The notes: generated by a model from the letters alone, not told the origin. A DNA stretch of 63,364 nt, filler included, from Chrysochromulina tobinii (GCA_001275005.1; 6 parts of 6 records of this genome joined end to end with filler, not necessarily neighbours in it), one strand, 5' to 3'; shown: positions 12,223-59,509, counted from the first letter of the whole stretch. Made by a program: numbers and translations.

Positions 12223-14827
12223 TCATCCTTCATGTTCTGCCTGGTGCTCGGCCCCTGAGACCCCGGCTGTGTCCATGTAGCTCGCCGCGCGCGCGCTCGG
12301 GGGCGGACTTGGCATGGGCGATGCATTAGGGGACAGCTGCACCTCCGGGCGCGCGCGGCCTCCCGCCCGTGTGGCTTTAGGGCTCATCTGCAGCTTTTCT
12401 ATTTGCGACGCCTCCTCAGACGCCTCCGGGAATATCTTCGCCAGGGCCAGCCGCCGCTGCCGCAGCATGTACACGACAAGAGCCGCGCCGATGCCAATCG
12501 CAATCGCGATCACAAAGACGGAGAGGCTGATCGCCCCCTCGAGGCTGAGCGCAGAACCGGCCTCCGAAAGAGGCGGCGTCTTATAGAATGTCACGTTGAA
12601 ACGGGGGAGCGTTAAGGCGTCAGGCGCACCCGTGGCCGCCAGGAAGGCGTTGAGTGCGTCGGTGGATGCAGTGTGCGGCTCCAGGCTGGCTCGAACGGCG
12701 CGCAGCTGTGTGGCGCCGTACACGTCGTAGCTCGCCGTGAAGACCACGGAGCCTGCACGGACTGCGAGGCCCGTGCGCATCGGGTCGCGCGCAGGGTGCA
12801 GGATTGTGAAGGTACTGTGCATGCTGCCGAGGGTGGCCTCGGAGACCGCACTCACGTCAGCATCGGCCACGTACTCCATTTCCAGCCGAAACATGAAGGC
12901 ACGGATGCTAGGGTCGTTGGCGGCTGCCAACTCGGCGCTCGCAATCTGCCCATCGATCTCACTGGCGAGCGCGGCGGTGCTCGAGGTGAAGTAGTTGCAC
13001 ACGGATGCAGCGTGTACTGTGACCACGCCTGACGCCGTAGGACCGCCTATGATGGAGTGGCTGCTGTCCATGGCGCACGGGGTGGGCATCGTGGCGCCAT
13101 TCGAGCCGCACCGGTAGTTGAAGGCCGCTGGATCGAGGCAGCCCTGCACCCGCTCGTAGCAATACCCGTGATGCCGGGCGCTCACATCAAAGTTGAGGGC
13201 GGTCGGCGAGGTGCAGCCGCGGCGCATCGTCACGCATGCACTCACATTGTCCACGGTCGCGAACGGGTTGTAGTTGAATGCCAACGGGTCCAGGCAGCCG
13301 GTCACGCGTGGCACGCACCAGGAGCCCTGGTTGATGGTCGCATTGGGGTCGAAGTTGGCTGCATTCACATCCATGCACCCTTCGACGGCAATGACGCAGC
13401 CTTCGAGCACATTGGCTGCTGGATTGTGGGCCACCACAGCGCCATATGTGGCGAATGGCACGAGCCCTCGGAAGGGTATGCCAACGTACCGGGGCATCAT
13501 GGCCGTGGGCCTCGTCCTCCGTTCGCTGCTGGCGTTGACGCTGTGGCTCTCATTGCTCAGGGCACCAGTCGCGTTACTTCTCGCGGCGAGATTGCGATCG
13601 GCGGCGGAGAGCAGCAAGGTCGAGAAGGGGCTGAGCGCCGGCAGCGTGCAGCCGCGCACGCCAGGGAGGCACGAGCCGTCGTCCTGGGTGGCGCGCGCGT
13701 TGTAGTTGATCGCTGTCGGATCGGTGCAGCCGGACGTCGGGTATTGACAGAAAGCGGACTCTCGCGCACCCGGGTTGTAGTTGAGCGCGCCAGGGAAAAG
13801 GCAGCCCGGGTAGAAGTGAGTCGGGATGGCGCACGCCTGCGGGATGTGCACCTCCGCCGTGCGCTCGTAATTATTGTCGTCGGGGACCATGCAGCCTGCG
13901 AAAAGGAGCCGCCGAGCGTACATGGGGCGAAAGGTCGCACCCCCGGCCTCGATGGTGGTGCGCCACGGACATGGCAGGATGCGCGTGAGCGTCTGGATCG
14001 ATTGCCCACTCGCGTAGTTCGGCGCGCGCATAGCGGTCAACGGAGCGTGACGGCTGTGCACGTTGGTCGCGCGGCCGCATTCGAGCGTGCGCGCGGAAGA
14101 CGCGTAGCACAGACCTTCGAGGCCGAGGTGCGAGCAACGCGAGCCCACGTACATGCGTCGCTCGGGCGTGGATGGGCACCGGCCGTACGTTTCACACGTC
14201 GTGTACCCGAACATGTGGCCGCCATCGATGAGCGTCTCTTCGGAGGCCATCTCGCCGTGCTGGTACGTGGCGACCATCTCGACGCCGTCGAAGGCGCCGA
14301 GACGGATGACGTCGTCGGCGCGCACGAAGTGAGAATCGAGCGCGTCGTTGGCCTCGGCGAGCATGCTCTCGTCGATGCCGCCGCGTGAACCGATGATCAG
14401 ATCGGACACGTTCGTCTCCGCCACGAAGATGTCCACCGAATTGTCATACACATACTTGCGTAGGACCGAGAGCTTGGCAGCTTCGGTCCAGGGGTGCACG
14501 AGCGTCGGCATCGTGAGCGGCTCGCTCTCTGTCGAGGGGCGCTCGAGACTCGCGTATAGGCACACCTTGTTGCAGTGTCGCTCGGCCGGAGGCGGCGGCA
14601 ACGGCGGCGGGAACGGTGGCGGCGATGGCGGAGGCGAGGGTGGCGGCGGTCTTGGTGGCGGCAGCGGTTCAGGCGATGGGGCTGGCGGCGGTGGCGAGGG
14701 CGGCGGCGGTGGCGAGGGCAGCGGCGACGGAGGCGGAGGCCTTCTGGGCGGTGGCGAGGGCGGCGAGGGCGGCGGCCGACGCGGCGGCCGAGGCGGCGGG
14801 GGCGAGGGCGGCGGCGGTGGCGAGGGC
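12223..14827 (-). CDS. Single-pass cell-surface protein with Cys-rich GC(T/M/L)DxxAxN(Y/F) repeats and a Pro-rich stalk, 5'-truncated by gap
   Basis: Repeats such as GCTDPTAINYNARATQDDGSC, GCMDVNAANFDPNA and GCLDPLAFNYN. C-terminal TM followed by RQRR. Poly-Pro coding stretch runs up to the gap. Confidence 0.75.
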
Positions 14828-14927
14828 NNNNNNNNNNNNNNNNNNNNNNNNNNNNNNNNNNNNNNNNNNNNTTAATTAATTAANNNNNNNNNNNNNNNNN
14901 NNNNNNNNNNNNNNNNNNNNNNNNNNN
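14828..14927. other. Artificial contig-join spacer (N44-TTAATTAATTAA-N44). Also at 27324-27423, 47889-47988, 55562-55661 and 59510-59609
   Basis: Identical 100-nt spacer with stops in all six frames, occurring five times. Confidence 0.97.
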
Positions 14928-14930
14928 GGT

Positions 14931-17900
14931 TTGGACGCAGACACGCGGACTTGGGACGACGAGGAGGAGCGCAGGGCACGAATAGACCTGGTGGCCGAGA
15001 TGGATGCGGCTGCTGCGGGTCCCCTGCAAGCGGATCCATCACCCGAGATCAAGCGTGAGCTCTTCAAGGCAGCGCCGCCGCCGCACCGCCCCGCAATCGG
15101 CCCCGCGCGGCCCGATGCCTTCCGCGACGACGGGGACGACACCATCCTCGACGACATCGACGACGACGACGCTGTGCGGCCCATTGGCGCACCGTCCGAG
15201 CTGCTTGCATCTCGGACTTCTATGGAAGGCCCTACACCGTTGCCGCCAAAGCTGCGTCAGGCACTCACAGAGCTCGACCAAATCGTCATACACGTCCTCA
15301 TGTGTGGAGCGATTCGGTTTCTATGCGTCAAGTGGCTACTGATGCAGGAAGACAACTTCAAGATGCCGAATCGGCAGGCGCTCGAGGAGATTGAAAGGAG
15401 CGGGGCCTCGCCGTCGCCGCTGCTGAGCCCTCAAGAGGCCGCAGCGCTCGTCGAGCGTGGAGATCGGAGCATCGGCGCGCTTACCTATGGCTGGCTCAGT
15501 CCAGGCGATCCAGATCCAGACGGCTCGCGAATCCGCGTGCTTCGACGCGCTCTGATGGGGATGGCAATTCGAACTGAAGCCTTGTTCTGGGACTTTGGAT
15601 CGCTGTATCAGGCACCAAGGACACCGGAGCAGAGTGCTTCCTTTCAGCTCGCCCTCGAGGGTGGGGCGATGAATCAGCTTTATGCGTCGATCCTTGCAAC
15701 GACCGTGCTCCAGATCGAGGAGATCCCACCCCGGCCAGCCGAGTTTGATGGCGTTGTCTGCTTGTTCAAGTTGAGCGCAAATGTCGACGAGGACAAAGTA
15801 CGCGCGGCGCTCGTCGGGTTCGGAACTATCAAGAGCTACGACCTCAAACGCACCCCCGCCATCGTGCGCTTCGCCTCGCACGCCTCTGCCGTCGCGGCCA
15901 AAAAGGTGGGGGATGCGGCCAAGGATGCGGGGATGAGTGCCTGGCCCGGCCTATTCGAGGGGCTCGACACGCTCTACAATGAGACGCCGTACTTTTCTCG
16001 CGGATGGTGAGCGCTGCCCGTCCGATTCTGCAGACGTTACTGGATCCCCTTTCATAACCCTCACGCGCCTGCCACACTCTCCCACGCAGGTGCTGCTGCG
16101 AAGACTCGTTGAGCCGAGAGCTCATGAAGCGGTTGACGGCCTACCCCGCGCTCCGGGAGCCCCTCGATCAGCTTCAGCCCAAGGTCTTTGCGCTGAGCAG
16201 CAAAGCGGATGCAACCCCCATTGAGGTTGAGGCAATCGAGAACGACGTAGCCGCTGACATTGAGCGGATCAACAAGTCCAAGTTCACGAGCAAGGGCGAC
16301 AAGCCCAAGGTCATCAGCCTTTATATGGAGTACGTGCACAACACCGTTGGCGCGCTGCAGAAGACGCTCGGGTCGCTTCAGATGCTCGCGTTAGGCAGCG
16401 CGACGGCCGCGCCGGCGGAGCCGCTGCCGCAGGTCGATGCGCCGGCCGCGGAGCCGCTGCGCCTTGCCGAGGGACAGCCGCTGCTCCTGCTCTCGTCGCA
16501 GGGCAGCGGCGCGGGCGGCGGGCCGCGCTTTGGCGTCGTCGATGCGACCGGGGGGCGTGTTGCCGCCGCCGTCACGGGCGAAGACGACGCCGAGCTTGCC
16601 TACGACCGATGCAGCCAGGCGGTGCTCCCGTGGCGGCCGCCCGCTGCCGGCTGGGACGCCGCGTTCGTCGGCGATGCGCGTGCGCTTCGCGACCTCGTCG
16701 AGCCCGCACGCCGCCTGGCGGACGATGCTCGGAATATGGAATCGGAATCGGCTCTGCGGGCCGTGGGCGAGCGGGCGCGCGAGATCGCCGACGGCGCGGC
16801 GCGATGCCAAAGCATCGCGCACGCGGTGCGCGAGGTGGGTGGCGCCGTGCGGTCGTGCGTGGATGCGGCGGCGACACTCTTCAAAAAACAACAACAGGGC
16901 GATCCCAAGCAGCTCCAAGCCGCTCTCGACAAGGTGCGCGCGGCGGTCGAGACGCTGCAGCCCGTCGCGCTCGAGGCCGCGCTCACTGCGGCGCTGCGCT
17001 CCAGCGGCGCCAGCGGCGCCCGGCGCTACGCCGCCGGCCAGCCGCTCACCGTGCATACGACCGGCGGCTGGCGCGATGCCGACGTGGCCACGGCGGGCGC
17101 CGAGGGCCTCTTCCACGGCCTCACCTTCTTGGACGGCAGCGGCGAGCCACCTGCCACGCTCACGCTGCACCCGTGGAACCACGCGCCGCGCGAGCTGCCG
17201 CACGCCGCCTTCGAGGCGATGCGCGACTGGTGGGCGCGCTCGCTCCGCGCGAACCATACTCACATTCCCGACGCGCTCACGGGCAAGCGGCTCGACGCAC
17301 TGCAGCAGTGCGTCGCCATCCGCGTGGACGCCGGCGTCGGCGGGGTGGTCGTAGCACCTGCAGCAGCCCTCAGGGCAGCGCCTCCAAGCGGCGCTGCTGC
17401 GCCTGCGCCCAGACGCCTGTCTGGGGGCCTCTTTGCCGCACCTTCACCTGCCTCTGCCTTTGGCATTGATGCTCCGGCAGTGCCTGCCTTCACCATTGGC
17501 GCCCCCCCCGCGCCCGCTCGTCCGGCGGCCGCAACACCCACATTTTGCGGCGGCGCCGCCTCCTGTAGCTATCTCTTTGGTGGCACGCCCGCAGCGCCAG
17601 GTGGACTCTTCAGCAATCTTGCCTCCGGCACCGCCACGCCGACGACGTCCTTGTTTGGCGCGGCCGCGGCCACGCCACAGCTCGCCGCTGCCGTGCCCTG
17701 CACAGCCCCGGCCCCATCGTCTGCAGCCTTCTCCTTCGGCGGCGGTCTGTTTGGAGGAGGCGGCGCTGCAGCCCCGGTCACATCGTCTGCAGCATTCTCC
17801 TTCGGCGGCGGTCTGTTTGGAGGCGGCGGCGCTGCTGCGCCTGCACCCGCGTACGGCGGCGGTCTGTTTGGAGGCGGCGGCGCTGCTGCGCCTGCACCCG

Positions 17901-20900
17901 CGTACGCCGGCAGTCTGTTTGGTGGTGGCGGCAAGGCTGCTTGCGGCCTTGTCCTCCCTGGCAACTCGTTTTTCCCGGCGGGCCCGGCGATGGGTGGCGG
18001 CCACTTCGACACCTTTATAGTCAGCTCCTCACCTTTCTTCGGCGGGGCGGCTGCGGCCGGCATGGGCAACACAGCACCATACCAGCCCTCTCCCGCGCCT
18101 GCCACCTTTAGCAGCTTCGGTGCTGCTCCCGCGGGTGGAGCTCGCAGTCCCTTTGGCGCTGCACCGGCTGGAGGCGGATTCGGCGCGGCTCCGTCGCCAC
18201 TCGGAGGGTCCGCCGCTGCGCCACCAGCATTTGGAGCGGGCGCTGTGCCAACATTCGATGCGATCGCGATGCCAGAAGTCAATGCCTCTACCTCCTTCGG
18301 CGCGACGTTGGAGTTCGGTGGTTTGAGTGCGGCCAGTGCGGGGGCCGCCGGCTTCGGCGGGGCGGCCGCGGCCGCGGCTGGTACGCCAGAAATCGTAGTC
18401 CGCGACGCGCACAGCCTGACCGCATGGTTGCTTGCGCAGCACGGCGCGCGGCTCGAGGGCGGCCCAACGGAGGGTCCACTCGCGGTGCTGCTCACCGCCG
18501 GCCCCGCGAGCGGCAAGACGACGCTGCTGTCGCAGGTGGTGATGATCGCGCTCCAAGACGAGCGCACGGAGCTCGTGCCCATCCTGGTCAAGGTGCAGGT
18601 CTTGCAGCAGCGGCTGCTCAAGGTGCCCGACGCCTTCGCCGGTTCGTGGAACTACATTGACGCCTTCCTGCGCCTTGAGCACGAGGCGAGCCGCCCCGCG
18701 CTCTACCGCATGCTGCGCCAGGCGATGATGGCGCGTCGGGCGCTGCTCCTCCTCGACGGGCTCGACGAGGCCGGCGCCAAGCGCGCCGAGATCGAGCGCC
18801 ACGTGGTCGACGCGCTCGCGCCGCAGGGCCACGTGCTTCTCTGCACCTCGCGGCCGGCGGGCGTCGATGAAGCGCGCTTTTCCGCCTTCCGCCGTCTCGC
18901 GCTCGCGCCGCTCTCGGATGCTCAGCAGGAGCGCGCCCTCGAGCAGCGCCTCGGCGCCGAGCGCGCGGCTGTGCTGCTGACGTACGTGCGCGACGTGATG
19001 CCGCGCGACGACACGGGCCAGAAGGTGACGAGCAACCCGCTGATGCTCTCGATGGTTGCTGCCGTGTACGAGCTGCGGCAGGGCGTGGGCATGCCCCGGA
19101 CGGTCGCCGAGCTGTACGCGACCGCGTCCGACGCGATGCTCGCGCGCGGAGGCGTTAAGACGGCTGAGCTTGCGCGGCTGCTGCGGCGCATCTTCTTCGA
19201 GGCGCACGTCGCGCAGCGCCGCCTCATTGAGGACCGGCAGCTGGACGAGGCGGCGCTCAGCCTGGAGGCGCCCGAGGTGCTAGCACAGATTCGGTCCTCC
19301 TCGGGCCTCGTCAGTGAGACGGCCGCGCTCCAGCGCGCCATGGATGCGAGGGCGCCCGCCGTGCGCGCGGCGTGCGAGGCGAGCCTGTCGGTGGAGCTGC
19401 TTGAGGCGCTGCGCACGGTGCGCGAGCGCGTGCTCGTCGACGCGCTGCCGCTGCTCAGCCTGTGGCAGTCCGAGCCGCTGCAGCTGCAGTCGTCGCACCT
19501 CTCCTTCCAGGAGTACTTTGCTGCGATCGCGCTCTGCGACGAGGGCACCGAGCTCTCGGGCACGCCGCCGTGGCAGTGGCCCGCGTGGTGGGCGAACGTG
19601 GTGAAGCTCGGTGCCGAGATGCAGGGCGACCGCTTTGGTCGTGGGCTGCTGCGCGCGGCCGGGGTGACGGGCGACACGCTCAACCTCTCGCAGAAGCTCG
19701 GCGGCGACCGGCCGACGGTGCGGCGCGTGCTGGCGGCCGTGGTCGCCAGTGCCGGCGAGCTGATTACGCTCAACCTGAGCAAGAATGAGCTCGATGCAGA
19801 GGATGCTCGAGCGCTTGCCCCTGCTTTGACGAAGACCACACTCGCGCGCGTCGACATGCGCAGAAACAAGATCGCGGGCGACGGCGCTGCCCGGCTCTCA
19901 ACCGCTGTCCTCAGCAACCTCAAGATCGAGATGTTCAACGAGATCCCGATCAAGGAGATGCGCGCCGACACGTTCGCAGAGCTGGACCTGAAGGAGAAGG
20001 ACGTCGGAGTCGAGGGAGGCATGGTCGTGGCGGGTCTTTTACCCGTCATGGGCGGGCTGACGAGCATGGACCTCTCCAGAAACCAGCTGTGCGGCATCTG
20101 GACTGACGGGAGAGGCCATCGACAAGGCACCTACACCGCAGAGGGCATCACTGCAATCGCCAAGGCCCTGCGCGTTAATGTCGGGCTGACGGCCCTGGAT
20201 TTGTCCTCTAACGACCTCGCGGATGAGGGCATAAGCGCAGTCTGCGAGGCCATCCAGAGTAACGAGGATACCAAGCTCGCGTCGCTCAACTTCAGTGACA
20301 ACGGCATCGGTCCAGTTGGAGCAAACGCTGTGGCGGCTATGGTTGCTGTGACAGGCGCGTTGACATGCGTCGACGTCAGCACCCAAGGATATAACATTGC
20401 GGGCAACGACGCTGCGCAGCTCGCAGCCGCTATCCTAGGCAACCTCAAGATCGAGAGGTTCAACGAGATCCCGATCAAGGAGATGCGCGCCGACTCGCTC
20501 AAGGAGCTGGACCTGAATGGGAAGGACGTCGGAGTCGAGGGAGGCATGGTCGTTGCGGGTCTCATACCCGTCATGGGCTCGCTGACAGCCCTGGATTTGT
20601 CCTCTAACTGCCTCAAGGATGAGGGCGTAAGCACAGTCTGCAAGGCCATCCAGAGTAACAAGGAGACCAAGCTCGTGTCGCTCAACTTCAGTGACAACGG
20701 CATCGGTCCAGTTGGAGCAAACGCTGTGGCGGCTATGGTAGCCGTCACAGGCGCCTTGACAGAGGTACTCTGAACTCTGGCCCAGCGTTTTGGACCTCAA
20801 ATTGTGACCTGTTCTGACTGGAGAGCTTGCCCTCTCTGTGTACAGGTGAACCTCGACGGCTATGCGCTACCCATCAAGAAGCTCAAGGGCACCGAGCCAG

Positions 20901-22234
20901 TCGAGTTGCTCGACCTATGTGACAAGTGCCTCGGTGTTGCCTCCGCCTTCGTGATCGCCTCACTGATCGGCGTCAACGGCGTGCTGATGAAGCTGTCGCT
21001 CGCCAGAAACAATTTGGAGGAGGGCATACAAGCCATCTGTGAGGCACTAGAACAGAACACGACGCTCAAGGAGCTCGACATCAGCGGTGATTCGCGTGGC
21101 AGCAACATTGATGGGTCAGCAGGAGCCAAGCACGTGGCCAAGTTGCTTGGCGTCAACGGCGCTCTGACGGAGTGCAATCTCCAGAGCAATCATCTAGGCG
21201 CCAAAGGCTGGACCGTCGTCTTCACAGCACTGCGCAACAGTAAGGTAAGCAAGATCTCCACGTGGGATCTCCGTGCTGAGTTCCGTGCTGAGTATGACAT
21301 CAAGGTGAGCATCAAAAGCATCAAACCTTTGGCTGAGTACATCGCCGTCAGCGGCGGGCTGACAGCCCTGGATTTGTCCTTCAACAACCTCATAGATGAG
21401 GGCGTAAGCGAAGTCTGCGAGGCCATCCAGAATAACAAGGAGACCAAGCTCGCGTCGCTCAACTTCGAGCGCAATCGCATCGGCCCAGTTGGAGCAAACG
21501 CTGTGGCGGCTATGGTAGCCGTCAACGGCGCCCTGACGGTGGCCAACCTCCTACGCAATCCGCTTGATGCAGAGTCCGCCAAGATGCTTGCTGAAGTCGC
21601 CAAGCAGAAGGGCATCTCGCTCTGCGGCATCCGGCGCGATCAGACCACCGCTGACTTCCACGATCAATACCTGAAGCCGCCTGATGCGATCCTGCTGGCG
21701 TCGGACCTGACGCAGGCCGTTGTCACAGGTGGGCTGACAAGCATCAACCTGTCCGGAAATCACCTCACCAACTTAGGAACGGACATGACGGGCATCAAGG
21801 AGCTCGCCGCCGCTCTTGGCGTCAACGGCGGGCTGACCAAAATATCTCTCGCCAAAAACAAGTTAGGGGAGGAGGGCACCAAGGCCATCTGCGAGGCAAC
21901 AGAACAGAACACGACGCTCAAGGAGCTCGACATAAGCGGCGGGTTTGGAGAATGCAACATCGGAGGGTCAGCAGGTGCCAAGCATGTGGCCAAGATGCTT
22001 GGCGTCAATGGCGCGCTGACGGTGACCAACCTCCTGGGCAATCAGCTTGATGCAGAGTCAGCCAAGATGCTTGCTGAAGTTGCCAAGGAGAAGGGCATCT
22101 CGCTCTGCAGCATCCAGCGCGACCAGACCACCGCTCACTTCTCCAACCAGGACCTCAAGCCGCCCCCGGCAGTCTTAGACTCACACCGTCATCGACAAAC
22201 CAAGACCTTTCGACGAAACCCGCCATCGACTTAA
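14931..22234 (+). CDS. NLR-like protein: HET-like domain - FG-rich insert - NACHT - RI-type LRRs. Introns 16007-16089 and 20765-20845. 5' end may lie beyond the gap
   Basis: HET-like TYGWLSPGDPDP, LFWDFGSLYQ, MNQLY and RGWCCCE (rebuilt across the intron). Walker A GPASGKT, Walker B LLLLDGLDE, TSRP, SNPLMLSM, HLSFQEYF, many LxxLxLxxN repeats. Both GT-AG introns restore the frame. Confidence 0.88.
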
Positions 22235-22355
22235 AAATCATGGCGCTCATGCAAGCGCGTCCCCGAGTGGCGCGCTTACATGACTACTGGCTGTGATCCG
22301 TGTGCCCGTGTGCGTCCGTGTGTCCCTTGTGTGTCCCGGCTCCCCCGGTGTCTTT

Positions 22356-23150
22356 TTACCGGTACCCACCGGTACAGTCCCGGCTCCCCCGGTGTCTCAT
22401 CTCCTTGGCCATCTTTTTGGCTTCCTCCTTAGCTCTTCTACCGCGCTCGGCCGACTGCACGCGAGTCGCCGCGGCCGTCTCGATGGCGTCTTTCCGGATG
22501 ATCTCATGTGCCGCCGGCTCCACTGTCGCCGGCCCCATTGCCGCCGGCTCCGCTGCCGCCGGCTCCGTTGCCGCCGCCTGGTCCTCGGCACTCCTGGCCC
22601 GGATCAGCTGCGAGACCGGCGAGCCGCGCTCAGCCGCTGCCTCCGCCTCTGCCGCCTCCGCCGCGGCCGTCGCCGCCACCTCCGCCACCTCCGCCTCTGC
22701 CGCCGCGGCCGATGCTGCTGCTGCCTCCGCCTCCGCCGCCTCGGCCGCTGCCTTATCGGCATCCTCCGCCGCGGTCGCCGCCGTGGCCGCCTCCGCCGCC
22801 GCCGTTGCCGCCGCCGCCGCCGCCTCTGCGGCGGCTGTCTCGGCTTCCGCCGCATCCTTTGCAGCCGCCTCCGCCGATGCCGCCTCAGGCGGCCACTGCT
22901 TCAGCCGCCGCCTCCGCCGATGCCGCCTCGGCGGCCACTGCTTCAGCCGCCGCCTCCGCCTCCGCCTCCGCCGCCTCCGCCGCCGCAGCAGCAGCCGGAG
23001 CTGCCTCTGCCTCCGCCTCCGCCTCCGCCTCCGCCTCCTCTGTGGCTGCTGTCTCGGCCTTTGCCGCCTCCTTTGCAGCCGCCTCCGCCGATGCCGCCTC
23101 GGCGGCCACTGCTTCAGCCGCCGCCGCAGCCGCAGCCGCCGAGGGTGCTG
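22356..23150 (-). pseudogene. 3' fragment of an Ala/Glu-rich IQ-motif protein gene, abutting the LINE 5' end
   Basis: EAAAK/AEAE low-complexity coding sequence and IQ-like AAATRVQSAERGRRAK. A frame change occurs within the repeats. Confidence 0.4.
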
Positions 23151-26100
23151 CACGACCTGCTCGCGACTCGGGTGGCGTCAAATTCGACTTCACGACCGTT
23201 CAGTCGCGGTGTGGCTACTTCCAGGGGTGCCTCCTCTCTACCGAAAAGGCCAAGATTTTTATGGCCAGCCTCAGCGAGGCGATCGACACGCTGGTCGGCG
23301 GCGGCGGGGTTCGTCTGTGGAACGGCACTTTCCACGGGGGACGGCGGTACCCGAGCATTCTTTGCGCCGACGACCTGCTTGGTAGCTTGACGAGCTGGGT
23401 GGCTGGCATCGTCTTCATTCGCCTTCTGGACGAGTGGGCCGACGTCTCGGCTAGCCACTTTGGCATCGCCGACGACGCGTCCAAGACTACGTTCTCTGCC
23501 ATCTTTGTCGATGGCTCCGGCGTGCCGCACGAAGCCCCGGCGCCGCCTGCATTCCTCGCCGCCGCGCGCATTGGTGGCCGCGCCATCCCGCGCCTCCCGT
23601 ACGACGCCGAGTACGCACACGTCGGCGATCGACGCAAGCTCAATGGCGATCAGAGCCCCACCCGGGGCAAAGCGGTTGGCCTCTGCATGGCGTGGCTCAA
23701 GCGCGTTGAGCAGATGTGCCGGTGCAGCCCTCGCGAGTTTGCTCATGCCACGACCGTCGGCCTCGCTTCCATCATCGACGCGTACGCCCCGTTTGCGCCG
23801 TTGACTTTTGCGCAAGCCGAGGCAATTGAAAAGGTCCGGCGCGCCATTCATAAGCGACGCTTCCGCGGGCTGGTATCTGCAGCCTGTGCTGACCGGTATC
23901 TACCTGATGCTCTGCACGCGGCTCCACAGTACGGCCTCCTCACGGCAGGCCTTCTTGAGGCCTTGCGCGTTGGCGATGGGTGGATGCACTGCGCCTCTCT
24001 CAACGCCGCCAGCATCCACGCAGTTATCTCCGACGCCATCTCCGATGGCATCGACAGTCAGCTTCGATTCTGTGCCCGGGCGCTTCTTTCCCTTACGTGC
24101 TTTCTCTGGGGCAGCTTTGGTGCCCATCCGGCCACTTGGTCTTGGGTACATCTTGAACATCTTCTTGCAAACCCAGATCCGTCCGTTGGCTCCTCCTCGG
24201 TGGGCCGTGTCTACGCCACCGAGGTCTACATGAAAAACGTAGCTTTGCTTCGCCGACTCGCCGCATTGACCAACGGAGATCTAGCGCCCTCGTTCAACTT
24301 CACCTTCGAACACGTACCGCCCGCTGGAGATCCCTTTGATCGGACCGCCCTCATCTACTCTTCCAAGCTGGCGCATGATACCCTACGTTTGTTTGAGGGC
24401 GACCTTATCTCGGAAACCACGTGCGTGCAACTTGGGCGACGTCGTCGACCGGTGTGGCTTCTCCTCTCCGCAGGCATTGTCGTCCGGTCGCATGTATGTC
24501 GTGCGGACGGCTCCGACTTTATGACCTTTGCTGAAGCGGCACTGGTCGTTCCTGCGTTTGCGCGACGTGCGGGTACTACGCTCCTCGCCTCGCAACGCGC
24601 GTGGGATCAACTGATTACCGACCTTCGCGATCTCGACGTCGAGTCGGTCCCGAGAGAAGCCGTCCTCGACGCTCAGGCGATTTGGAGGGGCACGTCGTTT
24701 AACATGGCCGGAGCGCCTGACGGCTCCGCCGGCACTGGGCCTCGCGACGAGCTCGACGACCTCATCCAGCGCATGGCGAAAGGTGACGTCGCCGCCGCGA
24801 GCGAGTGGACGGCTGCTTATCGCACCTGGTCCGCGGCACCGCCTCCCCCGCGATGCGAACGGCCGCTGCCGTCACCCACCGCTGCGGAACTCTGCGGCCC
24901 CCACACTCGATTTCTCGTCCCTGCGCGCGGGGGCGAGATTGAGACCATTGTTCGAGGACGGCCCGCTCCTCCCTGCTCTGCGGCTGATGCGGCCGTGCTT
25001 GCGCGGTTCCGGTCGCAATCGTGGCGCGTCGCCCGCGACGGCCGCTCGATTGCCTGCTCACACGGCACCGAGCTCCAGCAGGCGTCCGTCATCGTACAAC
25101 TCTACGCGGCCGCGCTCCCCATCGCCATCGCTGCGTTTGATCGAGAGCAAGCAGCCAAGGCTCAACGTCGTCTCAAAGTCAACGAGAAGCGCAACCTCGC
25201 TGGACTTGACCCGCTGCCGCCCGATGAGCCTACTCCCGAGGAGATTTCCTGGCAAGGGGGACCGGGCTTCTGTGTCGCTCTCGCCAATGCTACCCTCGAC
25301 GAGATGCTCGCCGATGAACAGCGCCAAGGGTTCGCCTACACGGCCGCGGTCGTTGGCGACGGGTCGTGGGACCCTCGGCGGAAGCGCCTCTCTCGCGCCG
25401 CGCTGATGCACACCGGTGCATGTCTCGGCGGTGCTCTCGACGCCGACGACTTGATTGGAGGCACCCGCGACAATTACGATGCCGAGCTCGCGCACCGCGT
25501 CGATGCGCTCGCAAGGCTCGAGGGACAGCGCGTTTTCTATATCTTTGACTCCACCTCTCCCATTCTCGCAGGGGAGCACTTTCGCCGCCTGAGCCTCCCA
25601 GCTCGTTCACGCATGCTCTGCGACAACTGGCTCGCCTGGGCCATGGCGTTTGAGCAGCGCCTCGAAACGCTCACCTACTGGTGGTCGCACTCTCACTGCG
25701 GCCACTTGCCCGAAGCCGCCTTCGACGCGCTCGCCAAATCGTTTCTCTCGGGCGATCCGGTGCCCCTTCCTCGCCCTCTCGAACCTCCTCGCCACCGGTC
25801 CATTCGGCACTATGCCAAGGGCTCCGAGCGCGACCTCATGCTCCACGTGTACAATTTACACGTCGTGCGGACGCACTACACCACGCCCTCTTCGATGTTC
25901 GCACGCCCAGGGTGCCTCGAGTTTCTGCGGGTTGCCAAGCTCAACGACCAGCAGCGCTCCACCGTGCTGGCTGTTCGGGATGATCGAGTACGGCTCTTGG
26001 GCAGCCGCGTCTTTCGTGACACGGGTCCGCACTCCCTCGGAGCGGTGCTTACCAAACTAGGCTGCCCGTGCGGCAAGGGGCGACAGACTGTCGAGCATGT

Positions 26101-27323
26101 TCTCTGGGAGTGCGAGCTCTCCAGCGTCGTCACGCGGCGCGCGACGCTCCTCACTCCTGCCTGCACCGCCCTTGGTACCGCGCTCGATCGCTGCGAACCC
26201 ATCACACGCGATCACGCCGTCTCCTCGATTGCGCACCGTGCTCTTGAACGCGGACAACGTCCGGAGGCGTACCGTACGCTAACGGGTGCTGGGACACCCT
26301 TGAGCATCTCGCGAGACGAGGCGCGACAGGCCGCTCTCGCGCACGTGCTCGGCGTCGTTCAGGAGCCTTTGAACTGGTTTCGCCCGACCATCCAGCTCGC
26401 CCGCCCTCTCCTCCATGCCTCTCTTGCTATGATTGCTGCCGCGATTCAGGCCTCCACGACCACACTTCGGCACGCAATCCTCACCAGCCGTCGCCGAATG
26501 ACACTCTACTGCGCCCTACAGCGGCTTCGGTATCAGACTTGGACCCACCCTAAGCCAGCAGGCACGCCGTGCAGGTGCTGTGCAATTCCCGGCTCGCCCG
26601 CGCCGGGCGTTCACGTCCTAGGGTCGCGCCGTCCGATCGATGGTGCCCGCGCCGTTCAAGCTGTTCAACAGCGGGAAGGCGTCCGCGCCCAGGGTCCCCC
26701 CCAGCTCTCGAGCATTCGCTCTTTCGTCACTCGTGCTCGCGAGGAGGCGTTCCAATCGAGCAGCGCTGCTCGCGAGGTCTCTTTTCGGCTACAGCAGGAT
26801 TGCCTCGCACGGGACGACGACGCATCCGCCGCGCTTGCACGAGCCAACGACGCTCGGGCGCTTGCTGACGACGCTCGGGCGTCTGCTGACGACGCTCTGG
26901 CGCTTGCTGATGCCCTCGACGGGATCGACGAACTTTCTTCTACGCAAGCATGTGCAGACGCGGAGCGTGCACGCGCAGACGCGGAGCGTGCACGTGCAGA
27001 CGCGGAGCGGGCACTCGCTGCGCATCGCGCGGCCGCCATCGAAGCCGCCAATGCTGCTCGACTCTCGAACGCGGCGGACGCCCGCTATCGTGCCCTCGAT
27101 TCGCACGCCCATCGTGTCTCGGACTTCACGTATTTCGCCGCCCAACATGTCTCCGGTATCATTCTCGACAGCCAACGTGCAGCGGTTCGATCACATCGGG
27201 CTCAGAAAGCGGCCGCGGCGGCGAGGGCGGCGGCGACGCCGCGCCTCACCCCTGCGGAACGCCGGGTGCTCACGGTCCAGCGTAAGCGGCGGCGAAGGGA
27301 GGAGCAGGAGGCAGACTCAACCG
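23150..27323 (+). mobile_element. 5'-truncated non-LTR retrotransposon ORF2 (partial RT, RNase H-like domain, CCHC zinc finger)
   Basis: RT motifs GYFQGCLLS, LCADDL, SKT and YAHVG. RNase H-like VVGDGS...AE...IFDS...SHCG...D. Zinc finger CPCG...EHVLWEC. Upstream RT motifs and endonuclease are absent. Confidence 0.8.
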
Positions 27324-49285: not shown

Positions 49286-49934
49286 GCAAACGCCCGAACC
49301 CCTCGTGCCTGGTGAGCGGTCCTTTCGAAGACCAAGCCGCCGCAGCCCAACGCGGATTCTCTGTGCGCTGCTGGGTGAAAAAGGGCGACAAGAAGGTGCG
49401 TCACCACAGCCCGAGCCCATACCCCACCACACCTATGACTCCGTGTTGCCTGCCACCATTCCGCAGTACTACTTTGTGATTATAATTACAGCGCACCCGC
49501 GGACAGGCTGCGCCTACGCCAGGGAGCTGACGGTGCTCGCGCTCCTCGGCATTCCTTCGATTCCCGGCTCGTTTGAATTCCGGCGCCCCCCGCGCACCGC
49601 GGAAGACGTGGCGAAGTACATGAACCGCGATCCACCGTTTCAATCACTTCCGCGGCGCTTCGGCCAAACGATCACGGGTGTGCTGCCGGAACCAGCCTCC
49701 AGCTTGTACGCAGCCTCGCTAGTGAGCCAGGCCGAGAGTCTCCGGTTGGAAGCGAGTTTGTCTACAGGGGACGCATTGTGAGCCTGCGCCGTGCAGGTGG
49801 TGGCGTAGAATAGCGTCTAAGCGGCAGCGGCGAGAGCCTACATATGTGTAACGTATGTTTTTGAATCGTGGCGCGCAGATGCGGCTATTACAACTGCAAA
49901 AAAATGCAATAAAATGGGCGGGGGGAGGGATGGT

Positions 49935-52880
49935 TTACGGCCGCCAGTGTCCCAAGCCGACCCGAGGAGGCCACGTTTTATGATCCGAGGCGGTCGAAGG
50001 GTCCGTCGGGATACTATCGATACCCCCTGATAAAAAACGGCTCACCTCGGTGCGCGACGGGTCGGCTCCGGGTGGCTTTGTGCGAGGGGGTCCGGGTTGC
50101 CGGCGGCGGGGGGGGGGAAGGCTCACCGGCCGGCAGGGCCCCAAGACGACCCGAGGAGGCCACAGGTGGAGATCTGAGGCGGCAGAAGGGTCCGTCGGGA
50201 TGCTATCGATACCCTCTGATAGTAAACGGCTCACCTCGGCGCGCGACGGGTCGGCTCCGTGTGGCTTTGTGCGAGGGGGTCCGGGTTGCCGGCGGCGGGG
50301 GTGGGAAGGCTCACCGGCTGTCTGTGTCCCAAGACGACCCGAGGCGGCTTCAGGTGGAGATCCGAGGCGACAGAGAAGTCCGTCGGGATGCTATCGATAC
50401 CCTCTGATAGTAAACGGTTCGCCTTGGCGCGCGATGGGTCGGCCCCGGGTGGCATTTACGCGAGGGGGGTCCGGGTGGCCGGCGGCGGGTGGTGGGAAGG
50501 CTCACCGGCCGTCAGTGTCCCAAGACGACCCGAGGAGGCTTCAGGTGGAGATCTGAGGCGGCAGAGAGGTCCGTCGGGATGCTATCGATACCCTCTGATA
50601 GTAAACGGTTCGCCTTGGCGCGCGATGGGTCGGCCCCGGGTGGCGTTTACGCGAGGGGGATCTGGAAGCCGGCGGCGGGGGGTGGGAAGGCTCACCGGCC
50701 GGCAGGGCCCCAAGACGACCCGAGGAGGCCACAGGTGGAGATCTGTGGCGGCAGACAGGTCCGTCGGGATGCTACCGAGACCCCCTGATAGTGAATGGCT
50801 CACCTCGGTGCGCGACGGGTCGGCTCCGGGTGGCGTTTGTGCGAGGGGGATCTGGAAGCCGGCGGCTGGGGGTGGGAAGGCTCACCGGCCGGCAGTGTCC
50901 CAAGACGACCCGAGGAGGCCACAGGTGGAGATCTGAAGCGGCAGAGAGGTCCGTCGGGATGCTACCGAGACCCCCTGATAGTGAATGGCTCACCTCGGTG
51001 CGCGACGGGTGGGCTCCGGGTGTCTTTGTGCGAGGGGGGTCCGGGTGGCCGGCGGCGGGGGTGGAAAGGCTCACCGGCTGTCTGTGTCCCAAGACGACCC
51101 GAGGAGGCCACAGGTGGAGATCTGAGGCGGCAGAGAGGTCCGTCGGGATGCTATCGATACCCTCTGATAGTAAACGGTTCGCCGTGGCGCGCGACGGGTC
51201 GGCTCCGGCCGGCTTTGTGCGAGGGGGATCTGGTGGCCTGCGGCGCGGGGGATGGGAAGGCTCACCGGTCGTCAGTGTCCCAAGACGACCCGAGGAGGCC
51301 ACAGGTGGAGATCCGAGGCGGCAGAGAGGTCCGTCGGGATGCTATCGATACCCCCTGATAGTAAACGGCTCACCTCGGCGCGCGACGGGTCGGCTCCGGG
51401 TGGCGTTTACGCGAGGGGTATCTGGAAGCCGGCGGCGGGGGGTGGGAAGGCTCACCGGCCGGCAGGGCCCCAAGACGACCCGAGGAGGCTACAGGTGGAG
51501 ATCTGAGGCGGCAGAGAGGTCCGTCGGGATGCTATCGATACCCCCTGATAGTAAACGGCTCGCCTTGGCGCGCGATGGGTCGGCCCCGGGTGGCGTTTAC
51601 GCGAGGGGGATCTGGAAGCCGGCGGCGGGGGGTGGGAAGGCTCACCGGCCGGCAGGGCCCCAAGACGACCCGAGGAGGCCACAGGTGGAGATCTGAAGCG
51701 GCAGACAGGTCCGTCGAGATGCTATCGATACCCCCTGATAGTAAACGGCTCACCTCGGCGCGCGACGGGTCGGCTCCGGGTGGCGTTTGTGCGAGGGGGA
51801 TCTGGAAGCCGGCGGCTGGGGGTGGGAAGGCTCACCGGCCGGCAGGGCCCCAAGACGACCCGAGGAGGCCACAGGTGGAGATCTGTGGCGGCAGATAGGT
51901 CCGTCGGGATGCTACCGAGACCCCCTGATAGTGAATGGCTCACCTCGGTGCGCGACGGGTGGGCTCCGGGTGGCGTTTGTGCGAGGGGGTCCGGGTGGCC
52001 GACGGCGGGGGGTGGGAAGGCTCACCAGCCGGCAGTGTCCCAAGACGACCCGAGGAGGCCACAGGTGGAGATCCGAGGCGGCAGAGAGGTCCGTCGGGAT
52101 GCTATCGATACCCCCTGATAGTAAACGGCTCACCTCGGCGCGCGACGGGTCGGCTCCGGGTGGCTTTGTGCGAGGGGGTCCGGGTGGCCGGCGGCGGGGG
52201 GTGGGAAGGCTCACCGGCTATCAGTGTCCCAAGACGACCCGAGGAGGCTTCAGGTGGAGATCTGAGGCGGCAGAGAGGTCCGTCGGGATGCTTTCGATAC
52301 CCTCTGATAGTAAACGGTTCGCCTTGGCGCGCGATGGGTCGGCCCCGGGTGGCATTTACGCGAGGGGGATCTGGAAGCCGGTGGCAGGGGGTGGGAAGGC
52401 TCACCGGCCGGCAGGGCCCCAAGACGACCCGAGGAGGCCACAGGTGGAGATCTGTGGCGGCAGAGAGGTCCGTCGGGATGCTACCGAGACCCCCTGATAG
52501 TGAATGGCTCACCTCGGTGCGCGACGGGTGGGCTCCGGGTGGCGTTTGTGCGAGGGGGATCTGGAAGCCGGCGGCGGGGGGTGGGAAGGCTCACCGGCCG
52601 TCAGTGTCCCAAGACGACCCGAGGAGGCTTCAGGTGGAGATCCGAAGCGGCAGAGAGGTCCGTCGGGATGCTATCGATACCCCCTGATAGTAAACGGCTC
52701 ACCTCGGCGCGCGATGGGTCGGCTCCGGGTGGCTTTGTGCGAGGGGGTCCGGGTGGCCGGCGGCGGGGGGTGGGAAGGCTTTAGGAAGGCTCACCGGCCG
52801 GCGGTGTCCCATGACGACCCGAGGAGGCCACAGGTGGAGATCAGAGGCGGCAGAGAGGCCCGTCGGGATGCTATCGATAC
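49935..52880. repeat. Satellite array of ~190-bp units, about 16 copies
   Basis: Anchor CAAGACGACCCGAGG recurs at about 50142, 50330, 50521, 50711, 50901, 51090, 51281, 51471, 51661, 51851, 52041, 52230, 52420 and 52610, with degenerate end copies. Confidence 0.97.
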
Positions 52881-53020
52881 CCTGACCCTAACCCGAATCC
52901 TAATACCTAAAAAAAGTCAAGTTCGATCGCGGCGAGCACGCGCGCGCGGCTGTCCGCAAGTCGTGTCGCATTTCGTTTCACACCGGCATGCAACACGTCA
53001 TCATTAAGCAACTTAACGAT

Positions 53021-55561
53021 CTAACCTCTACCGACGTTTGGCCAACTATCTCCTTCGAGAAGGAGCTTAAAACCTGCCTTTCCTTGCAGTGCGTTGCGAA
53101 TCAAGGCCCTAGCTTCCTCGCCCTCGCTTCCTTGCCCAAAATCGGGCCCAAGACATGTGGACAGGTCGATGCTCGTCAGCGCGCCATTCACGCTGAGGGC
53201 ATCAGCGAGAACCTTGACACCGGACAAGTCTGGCAAATCGGAGTACCAGAGGTCGCCGTTATTAAGGAAATCAAGGACGATGCGTCCACCTTTCAATCTT
53301 TGGCCAACTTCGAAATAATCGTCCCCTTCAGAGTTAACACCTTGATATCTGTTGCCTCCTTTACAATAATCTTCGTCTTCATAGTCAACGCCAGAGCCGC
53401 CTTTGAAGGTGTGCGTGATGGTCCAACCACAGAGATTGTTGGACGAGAGATTGAGACTCATCAGCGCGCCGTTGACGCGCATGGCATCGGCAATCGCTGT
53501 TAAGCCCTTTGCACAGTAAGTTCCGCGGTTGTATTTGGAACAGTTCTGACCTGGCCCGCTAACCAGCCTTGCGGCGTCCAACTCGACGCCGCACAGCTCG
53601 TTGTTGCTGAGGCTCAGCTGCGTGAGCGTCGCGTTCGTCTGGAGCGCCTCGCCCATCGCCTTGCCGCTCTCCGCGCCGAGCTCGTTGCCCCCCAAGTCGA
53701 GCTGCGTCAGCGTCGTGTTCGTCTGGAGCGCCATCGCGAGCTCGCAGCCGCCCGCATCGCCCAGCTTGTTGTTGTTGAGGCTCAGCTGCTTCAGCGTCGT
53801 GTTCGTCTGGAGCGCCTCGCCCATCGCTTTGCCGCTCTCCGCGCCGAGCTCGTTGCCCCCCAAATCGAGCTGCGCCAGTGTCGTGTTCTTCTTGAGCGCC
53901 ACTGCGAGTGCGCAGCCGCCCGCATCGCCCAGCTTGTTGCTCTTGAGGCTCAGCTGCTTCAGCGTCGTGTTCGTCATGAGCGCCTCGACCACCGCCTTGC
54001 CACTCTCCGCGCCGAGCTCGTTGCCCCCCAAATCGAGCTGCGCCAGTGTCGTGTTCTTCTTGAGCGCCACTGCGAGTGCGCAGCCGCCCGCATCGCCCAG
54101 CTTGTTGCTCTTGAGGCTCAGCTGCTTCAGCGTCGTGTTCGTCATGAGCGCCTCGACCACCGCCTTGCCACTCTCCGCGCCGAGCTCGTTGCCCCCCAAG
54201 TCGAGCTGCGCCAGCGTCGTGTTCTTCTTGAGCGCCACTGCGAGTGCGCAGCCGCCCGCATCGCCCAGCTTGTTGTTGTTGAGGCTCAGCTGCTTCAGCG
54301 TCGTGTTCGTCATGAGCGCCTCGACCACCGCCTTGCCACTCTCCGCGCCGAGCTCGTTGCCCCCCAAGTCGAGCTGCGCCAGCGTCGTGTTCTTCTTGAG
54401 CGCCACTGCGAGTGCGCAGCCGCCCGCATCGCCCAGCTTGTTGCTCTTGAGGCTCAGCTGTGTCAGCGTCGTGTTCGTCTGGAGCGCCTCGACCATCGCC
54501 TTGCCGCTCTCCGCGCCGAGCTGGTTGCCACCCAAGTCGAGCTGCGCCAGCGTCGTGTTCGTCTGGAGCGTCGCAAACACCTGCAGGCCCTCGCCATCAG
54601 TCAACTTGTTCTCTCGCAGGCTGAGCGACGCCAGCCCACGCATCAACTCGGCCACCGCAGCGACCATCGTCGGCCGATCTCCCCCAATGAGTTTCTGGCT
54701 CAGGTCGAGCTCATCACCGGCCCCGGCTGTCTGCTTCAGCCCCTTGCCAAAGGCGTCGCCCATCTCGCTGCCGAGCGTGACCGCATTGGCCCAAAACGCA
54801 GGCCATTGCCACGGTGGCGGCGACCCCTCAGGGAGGCGGTACTTTCCCGAGCAGATGGCGTTTACTGCAAAGTACTCTTGGAAGGAGAGGTGCGCCGACT
54901 GCATCTGGAGCGGCTCGACCTGCAGCAGGCTGAGAAGAGGGAGCCTATCCTGTCCCACGCGCTCGCCAACCTGCGCGACCGCCGTCCGCTCCTCATCACG
55001 CAGCGCCTGGACCGCGCCGTCCAGGGCAGGAAGGCGCTCCGCGTCCGCTCTCGCCATCTGCGCCCGGCAAGCAGCTTCATCCAGCCCGGACGATACGAGC
55101 TGCCTGGGCTCCAGCCACCCCGTTGTGGCGCCGTCCGCCAGCTTGACCTTGTATGGCTTGTCTGTTTTGTCGTCCTCGACGATCACGCCACGTTGGCCCT
55201 TCCGCTCGCCGTCCAGCAGCTCCACGTAGTGGCCCTTCTCCGGCCGGCCCTTGAACGTCTGGAAGGGGTTTGCCACCTTCGCATCCAGGTCGGCGAGCGT
55301 CCCCGGCGGCGCAAAGGCGCCCAGCGCCGCGCGGAGGAGCTGCACCTCGGTGATCACGCGCGCCTGCGCCACGTGCGCCTCGAAGAACACGGCTTCCAGC
55401 AGCGTGCGCACTTCTGCCGTCACGCCGCCGCCGCGCGCGAGCATCGCGTCCGATGCGAACGCGTACAGCTCGGCGACCGTCTTCGGCATGCCCAGCCCTT
55501 TGCGGATCTCGAAGACCGACGCGACCATCGAGAGCATCAGCGGGTTGGCCGTGACGCGATG
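53021..55561 (-). CDS. NACHT-LRR (NLR-like) protein, C-terminal part, 5'-truncated by gap
   Basis: TANPLMLSM, PKTVAELY, FFEAHVAQ, HLSFQEYF and PPWQWPAFWAN are shared with the first NLR. Alternating 28-aa RI-type LRRs follow. Confidence 0.88.
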   Translation of the reverse strand, partial: HRVTANPLMLSMVASVFEIRKGLGMPKTVAELYAFASDAMLARGGGVTAEVRTLLEAVFFEAHVAQARVITEVQLLRAALGAFAPPGTLADLDAKVANPFQTFKGRPEKGHYVELLDGERKGQRGVIVEDDKTDKPYKVKLADGATTGWLEPRQLVSSGLDEAACRAQMARADAERLPALDGAVQALRDEERTAVAQVGERVGQDRLPLLSLLQVEPLQMQSAHLSFQEYFAVNAICSGKYRLPEGSPPPWQWPAFWANAVTLGSEMGDAFGKGLKQTAGAGDELDLSQKLIGGDRPTMVAAVAELMRGLASLSLRENKLTDGEGLQVFATLQTNTTLAQLDLGGNQLGAESGKAMVEALQTNTTLTQLSLKSNKLGDAGGCALAVALKKNTTLAQLDLGGNELGAESGKAVVEALMTNTTLKQLSLNNNKLGDAGGCALAVALKKNTTLAQLDLGGNELGAESGKAVVEALMTNTTLKQLSLKSNKLGDAGGCALAVALKKNTTLAQLDLGGNELGAESGKAVVEALMTNTTLKQLSLKSNKLGDAGGCALAVALKKNTTLAQLDLGGNELGAESGKAMGEALQTNTTLKQLSLNNNKLGDAGGCELAMALQTNTTLTQLDLGGNELGAESGKAMGEALQTNATLTQLSLSNNELCGVELDAARLVSGPGQNCSKYNRGTYCAKGLTAIADAMRVNGALMSLNLSSNNLCGWTITHTFKGGSGVDYEDEDYCKGGNRYQGVNSEGDDYFEVGQRLKGGRIVLDFLNNGDLWYSDLPDLSGVKVLADALSVNGALTSIDLSTCLGPDFGQGSEGEEARALIRNALQGKAGFKLLLEGDSWPNVGRG

Positions 55562-59100: not shown

Positions 59101-59509
59101 GTAGTACCCTATAATTCCCGCCAACGCCAGCTCGATTGCCTTGGCGAGCTGTTCCTCGGAGAGCAGCGGGATGCGTGCGATCAGCCCGATTGCCTGTCTG
59201 CACTTCGCCACCACCTTCTTTCTGACCGCAGTCTGTGCCTCCCCTCGATTCCATCCGGTCGTAAGCTCCGTGCCCAGGTACTTGTACTTGTCGTCTCCTT
59301 CCAATTGCGGGATCGTGGTTCCGTCTGGCATGACCATCTCCCACCCCGTCACATCTCTCTCCGTGCCGTCGCTCTCCCAGTAGGTTGCCGACCAGGCAGT
59401 CTTCTTCTTCCCCTTTACTTGGAGCTTCAGCCCCGCCACTCTGGCTACGATCCACATCGCCTCGAATGCCCTCCTGAGTGTTTGCACGTCGTCTGCGAGA
59501 ATGAGCCCC
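56101..59509 (-). mobile_element. Non-LTR retrotransposon ORF2, 3' part: end of RT, chromodomain, RNase H, Cys/His finger
   Basis: GLKL..KKT and YKYLG (RT C-terminal motifs). Chromo-like EVLAARK...WEYRIRWEGGYEDTWE. RNase H FATDGS / DAEMYA / LSDCQSAI / VPAHTG..PNEYAD. CAAC...HW...C finger. Confidence 0.88.

Follow-up and report, generated by a model that had tools for sequence, protein, structure and literature searches.

The window analysed here is a stretch of 63,364 nucleotides from the unicellular alga Chrysochromulina tobinii (GCA_001275005.1), in which six records of the genome are joined end to end with filler. At the very start of one of its contigs (14928-27323, following an N spacer that ends at 14927) lies a gene whose product combines a HET/TIR-like effector domain, a NACHT module and ribonuclease-inhibitor (RI)-type leucine-rich repeats (LRRs), in the manner of a NOD-like receptor (NLR). 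A three-exon model (Table 1) yields 2,379 amino acids (aa) with zero internal stops. The 5′ end is cut off, and a related locus, L001, supplies 68 further codons upstream, to a methionine common to protein P0001. An earlier note, made from the sequence alone, had listed HET-like, NACHT and LRR domains; NACHT and LRRs stood, and two inserts had been overlooked, an RNA-recognition-motif (RRM) fold within the effector domain and a phenylalanine-glycine (FG)-rich segment before the NACHT.

Table 1. Features of the receptor gene and of a second family member in the window (positions counted from the first letter of the window).
Feature	Position	Strand	Basis or remark
Exon 1	14931..16006	+	open from contig start and lacking the 5′ end; encodes an acidic/proline-rich linker, the initial part of the HET/TIR-like domain and the inserted RRM
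HET/TIR-like effector domain	15264..16360	+	about aa 112-450, split by intron 1; conservation, homologue models
Effector conserved blocks	begin 15477, 15582, 15669, 15999	+	conservation
RRM-fold domain	15747..15966	+	inserted between strand C and Glu helix of effector domain
Intron 1	16007..16089	+	83 nt, GT..AG; within Trp codon of RGWxxxE motif
Exon 2	16090..20764	+	gene model
Predicted catalytic Glu363	16100-16102	+	in exon 2
Conserved middle region, effector to NACHT	16361..17305	+	105 homologues; dN/dS 0.54
FG-nucleoporin-like low-complexity insert	17321..18397	+	loop just before Walker A; 355 aa, 17 FG, 6 xLFG, 12 charged residues
NACHT module	18398..19702	+	PF05729, 28.7 bits
NACHT motifs	Walker A 18497, Walker B 18743, sensor 1 18842, HD1 19031, winged-helix 19496	+	core motifs in order
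Switch zone	19402..19488	+	upstream gene A (L001/P0350), downstream gene B at protein level (P0252/P0384)
RI-type LRR array (gene B part)	19703..22234	+	Pfam LRR_6, PDB matches; intron 2 inside
Intron 2	20765-20845	+	81 nt, GT..AG; predicted, interrupts LRR array
Exon 3	20846-22234	+	gene model
Second family member, other contig	53024..55561	-	3′ half, with HD1, a KOW-like insert, a winged helix and LRRs

Intron 1 was skipped exactly in RNA contigs from all four runs examined (19 RNA runs are listed), joining exon 1 to the NACHT exon in these contigs as the earlier note had supposed. The contigs were matched at 90% likeness and paralogue transcripts may contribute, so the skipping demonstrates splicing at the level of the family. 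Exon 1 of this gene is itself represented in the libraries by contigs with 0-3 differences, again in 4 of 4 runs, and these libraries may contain DNA as well. Of 18 related loci fetched, all 16 that were tested had the intron at the identical position, and because it splits the RGWxxxE motif, splicing supplies Glu363. Intron 2 had no joint among the 15 RNA joints listed out of 22, and the corresponding junction is read through in one paralogue. One extra base at window position 21237, present in locus L002 and in RNA contigs of 3 of 4 runs, shifts the frame of exon 3; the libraries appear to contain an allele or paralogue with truncated LRRs. The earlier idea of one spliced gene with HET-like, NACHT and RI-type LRR parts was confirmed for the effector-NACHT-LRR architecture, intron 1 and the Pfam NACHT and LRR matches, and was not confirmed for the Pfam HET family, PF06985, or for the intron-2 joint. 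An Rfam scan of the window gave 0 matches.

Structure models of effector homologues were confident (pLDDT 95.5 and 90.6), and the conserved blocks and glutamate, kept throughout the family, sit on the expected strands and helices of the models. They may be counterparts of the three HET blocks, which run from strand A to helix C with a conserved Glu (PMC4986451). No scan of the domain matched Pfam HET, PF06985, which was found in 0 of 4, 0 of 12 and 0 of 62 proteins and was absent from the 25 families listed, out of 75, for 102 members. NCBIfam and PADLOC gave no match for the effector, and matches to the TIR/SEFIR fold were weak. With the RRM included, Foldseek returned RRMs exclusively; with the RRM removed, there was no match at E 0.001. 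In the ESM Atlas, all clusters returned were from haptophytes and lay below 0.9; they either had no name or bore MORN repeats, and they serve as leads only. Pattern searches, which reach close relatives only, found no effector or NACHT relatives in viral contigs, and no relative in prokaryote genomes or in phages (best E 0.2). We regard the N-terminal domain as a HET-like sister family outside Pfam HET, with the TIR fold weakly supported. By analogy, its predicted activity is cleavage of NAD or a related nucleotide via Glu363; PMC10890737 describes the activity of fungal HET itself as not known. Calling the domain "fungal-type" overstated the surprise, because HET homologues in Haptophyceae are already in print (PMC4986451). 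The domain was also seen joined to MORN repeats without a NACHT in 15 of 102 aligned homologues (for example P0094, P0130, P0147 and P0167), and elsewhere to EF-hands, a C-type lectin domain or a kinase.

The fold of the insert within the effector was confirmed as an RRM, and it was present in the effector domain of 94 of 97 measurable family members. At the RNP1 and RNP2 consensus positions it lacks the usual aromatic residues; the residues exposed there are for the most part Cys, Val, Ala, Pro or Arg. A role as a hypervariable sensor was rejected, since its ratio of nonsynonymous to synonymous change (dN/dS) was 0.46, like the rest of the core.

The middle region matched no Pfam family above cut-off. 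In the following module the proposed NACHT was recovered by hidden Markov model search, with PF05729 scoring 28.7 bits against a cut-off of 26.7 (27.1 bits in the whole exon-2 product). Walker and sensor residues were invariant across 25 sequences. A KOW/SH3-like insert that is common in paralogues (KOW match at E 0.009 in one of them) is absent from the window at about 19297, a 192-nt indel relative to L002. The LRRs matched Pfam LRR_6 at 81 and 50 bits, and their best PDB matches include ribonuclease inhibitor (E 3e-17) and NOD2-like and NLRP chains, the NOD2/NLRP-type chains at E 6e-10 to 5e-7. The NACHT, in contrast, had no match to solved animal NLRs at E 10, either as a single sequence or as a 25-sequence profile, so the description "animal-type NACHT-LRR" holds as domain order only. 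Matches to eIF2-alpha, YycC, DUF4030 and SpoU_sub_bind within LRR arrays were discarded as repeat artefacts; some pass the whole-protein cut-off, and no stretch passes alone.

The FG insert occupies a loop that is 33-86 residues long in most proteins. In 6 of 101 measurable proteins (112 were given) this loop before Walker A reached 118-880 residues, P0112 having been removed from the count as a regular-expression artefact. The long inserts include SPRY and C1 with SH3, and P0255 carries a PDZ-like insert, judged by eye; FG-rich inserts occurred in 2 of 99 paralogues. An exact 13-residue peptide of the window's FG insert recurs in the FG region of P0308, a protein that combines a Nup214 N-terminal propeller (E 3e-8) with FG repeats and a Gle1 domain, and one RNA contig on the insert at 17803 extends upstream into sequence whose translation is the P0308 FG region. 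Given the low complexity of the insert, the link is suggestive only, and the insert may be a copy of a host nucleoporin FG region. A second slot lies after the LRRs; there, a Pfam scan that covered about 55 of the 99 paralogues detected Vint with Fic, a dynein stalk or CUE in other relatives. Further relatives have DUSP, SAM or SPRY, or a kinase replacing NACHT-LRR. The family thus contains integrated domains, that is, foreign domains in frame inside the NLR that differ between paralogues. In another NLR paralogue, P0231, the LRRs are followed by a hydrophobic stretch and the apparent start of a second HET/TIR-like domain.

The window gene itself is a mosaic. It is identical to L001 over 14928-19488 and then shows 56 differences up to 20062, and from about residue 1511 its exon-2 product is identical to P0252 and P0384, proteins whose 5′ parts belong to a different paralogue without the FG insert; the window therefore joins one gene (gene A, L001 = P0350) to another (gene B). 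We think that the join is probably an assembly misjoin of two real paralogues. Gene A is found on 10 contigs, with an allele, P0357, on 1, and gene B on 7 plus 2 contigs. A true recombinant allele, in which the effector, FG insert and NACHT of gene A have been joined to the LRR sensor of gene B, is a possible but less favored explanation, to which L002 lends weight: this independent assembly likewise joins an A-type 5′ part to a B-type LRR array and 3′ flank, and sensor swapping is frequent across the family. The switch in L002, however, comes about 150 codons earlier, and only 1 contig carries the L002 product, against the higher counts for genes A and B. The window's switch, moreover, falls within 87 nt that match both L001 and L002, the two RNA contigs crossing the switch zone among those listed follow gene A (0 versus 2 and 12 versus 50 differences), and a search of the protein collection did not recover the exon-2 product, a weak test confined to exact matches. 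Since genes A and B both carry effector, NACHT and LRRs, the architecture stands. L001, L002 and P0357 diverge patchily, indicating frequent conversion, and allelic polymorphism in the family is high.

Intact gene A encodes about 2,810 residues, in which a short LRR array is followed in frame by a GLFG-like linker, a DEAD-box helicase and a Gle1 domain (Pfam 121.7, 96.8 and 109.2 bits). The LRR-helicase junction, near L001:15367, was bridged with 0 differences by a 381-nt contig in three RNA runs and with 9 differences by a 610-nt contig in a fourth run, of a kind not recorded; such a contig does not prove a single full-length transcript, and no argument was drawn from gaps in RNA cover over the helicase-Gle1 part. 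Compared with four stand-alone Dbp5/DDX19 proteins, the helicase shows 82-91% identity and keeps the helicase motifs, and the Gle1 part is 79-86% identical to six relatives and 54% to a seventh. Stand-alone Dbp5 and Gle1 proteins were found in relatives. In mRNA export, Dbp5 and Gle1 act on the cytoplasmic face of the nuclear pore, where they release the mRNA. Animal viruses degrade nucleoporins, Nup214 included (PMC3738964). In P0308, P0310 and P0312 a Gle1 C-terminal domain is combined either with a Nup214 propeller and FG repeats or with ankyrin-WWE-PARP and FG repeats, and ordinary Gle1 proteins exist too; judged from these proteins, mRNA-export parts may be reused recurrently.

The closest named proteins to exon 1 come from Chrysochromulina tobinii and C. 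parva (75-84% identity), followed by Emiliania huxleyi (49% and 38%). A search with the middle region recovered 105 proteins, an expanded family in which most members have NACHT and LRRs and a subgroup has ankyrin repeats instead of LRRs. Core regions are under purifying selection, with dN/dS of 0.32-0.57 among 12 sequences. The variable positions of the LRR unit (LxxLxLxxNxL) behave differently: the corresponding polymorphism ratio (pN/pS) was 1.45 (bootstrap 1.15-1.81; Fisher p 0.009) versus 0.43 for the rest of the unit, a simple count, open to gene-conversion effects, over 70 distinct units from 18 loci and both window copies, in 28 disjoint pairs. The second window copy carries a 168-nt LRR unit repeated 5.8 times and is 99.8% identical to L009. 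Beside it, at 49917-52882, are degenerate TTAGGG-like repeats and a 190-bp tandem array of 15.6 copies, and the region around it is possibly subtelomeric. A flanking motif considered as the mark of a mobile element was rejected, being present in 2 of 18 loci, both of them one locus, and absent from the window. Ctob_001341 (P0013) and Ctob_005934 (P0020) of C. tobinii, deposited as hypothetical proteins, have the same effector, RRM, middle region and NACHT, in P0013 also LRRs, and lack the FG insert. Neither HET-like NACHT-LRR proteins nor integrated domains turned up for haptophytes in the literature within reach, which included few subscription papers, and this algal family is apparently an undescribed variant of the NLR design.

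Family expansion, sensor swapping and positive selection at LRR surface positions are signs typical of immune receptors and support the proposal that the gene is a candidate innate receptor in a unicellular alga. We lean towards the view that this large, recombining haptophyte effector-NACHT-LRR family would comprise intracellular immune receptors with bait inserts. By this model the LRRs and NACHT would hold the receptor off at rest; the LRRs, or damage to an integrated copy of a host protein, would sense a virus; the NACHT would then oligomerise, the clustered HET/TIR-like domains would cleave NAD or a related nucleotide through Glu363, and the infected cell would die. Plant and animal NLRs are the source, by analogy, of several elements of this model: the nucleotide switch, oligomerisation, the enzymatic output, death of the cell and the role of the inserts as baits. 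A bolder version, in which the alga independently evolved integrated-decoy NLRs guarding mRNA export, with FG, Dbp5 and Gle1 as viral tripwires and a new TIR-like enzyme with an RRM in its catalytic core, seems to us rather unlikely.

The immune-receptor reading has to be weighed against others. The foreign parts might be passengers, with FG, Dbp5, Gle1, SPRY and the like tolerated as fusions that sense nothing in a NACHT-LRR signalling family. Several observations fit this and tell against bait inserts: Gle1 domains are also fused to unrelated partners, the Nup214 N-terminal domain and ankyrin-WWE-PARP proteins (P0308, P0310, P0312), the patchy divergence of L001, L002 and P0357 points to frequent conversion, one allele has the exon 3 frameshift (seen in L002 and in the RNA contigs from three of the four runs), and retroelement-like open reading frames (ORFs) lie nearby. 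The fusions nevertheless stay in frame over at least 800 residues and sit at recurring slots, and gene A holds three parts of one process, FG repeats, Dbp5 and Gle1, in two diverged alleles; we judge the passenger explanation unlikely. It is improbable that FG, Dbp5 and Gle1 are address labels or outputs for pore docking or mRNA-export shut-off rather than baits, even though the fused Dbp5 retains its helicase motifs and close identity to stand-alone Dbp5 and nearly all effectors contain an RRM fold. Most paralogues have no pore modules, and the slot also takes SPRY, C1 with SH3 and the PDZ-like domain; unrelated domains at one slot fit variable sensing better than a fixed address. We know of no cell-fusion incompatibility in this alga. 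Self/non-self recognition between algal cells, or recognition of prey or bacteria, in place of antiviral defence is very improbable. It would fit the high allelic polymorphism of this family and the fungal allorecognition NLRs with hypervariable repeats, in which HET serves as the death effector (PMC4986451, PMC10197012), but allorecognition is the role of only a minor fraction of fungal HET genes (PMC10890737).

As immune receptors, the algal proteins would resemble several known systems. Podospora HET-E and HET-D, together with HET-R, have an N-terminal HET/TIR-related domain with a conserved Glu, a central NACHT and variable C-terminal repeats, and fungal HET-NACHT-WD40 NLRs also reassort domains and exchange repeats between paralogues (PMC4986451). 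The algal sensor, in contrast, is an RI-type LRR array, a repeat class that the same survey reports in none of 5,616 fungal NLR candidates; the algal effector has no PF06985 match and contains an inserted RRM, foreign domains lie inside the NACHT and after the LRRs, and the host is a unicellular alga. Plant integrated-decoy NLRs (RRS1-WRKY, RGA5-HMA) share in-frame copies of host proteins that vary between paralogues, as well as a selected LRR surface and, putatively, a TIR-type effector (PMC7982415). They differ in having NB-ARC instead of NACHT, and the parts in gene A are mRNA-export factors with a putative bait role. NOD2, NLRP1 and NLRP3 likewise place a NACHT before RI-type LRRs, whereas the algal protein has no death-fold domain and its NACHT no detectable sequence match to solved animal NLRs; the shared domain order may be convergent. 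Nearer at hand, in the same algal phylum, TIR, NACHT and LRR genes of Gephyrocapsa (Emiliania) huxleyi are induced in cells resistant to a giant virus, tying the same domain classes to virus resistance (PMC12489294). Those TIR genes have no NBS or LRR, and that paper's main text describes neither a protein of effector-NACHT-LRR type nor a HET domain, the terms HET and NLR having 0 occurrences in it.

Microalgal antiviral mechanisms are largely unknown, and this family supplies concrete receptor candidates that are expressed, in a genus whose strains are cultured and whose viruses have been isolated. Should the inserts be baits, they would name the host processes under attack by algal viruses, mRNA export first, and the integrated-decoy strategy of plants would have arisen again in a single-celled lineage. 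The effector domain also provides a soluble, confidently modelled relative of HET. The interest lies more in the family with its integrated domains than in the single window gene, whose sequence is probably chimeric.

Other features were seen around these genes. Long ORFs at 22502-27322 (+) and 56104-59508 (-) are retroelement-like, with RNase H-like motifs recognized by eye and no Pfam match at E 0.1. At 12226-14826 (-) a proline-rich protein with no Pfam match, cut by the contig end, has repeated Cys-Asp-Pro-Asn-Tyr motifs and a C-terminal membrane helix. Upstream of gene A, L001:2400-7296 resembles, by eye, a RecB-family nuclease with a superfamily-1 helicase, a pairing more usual in bacteria.
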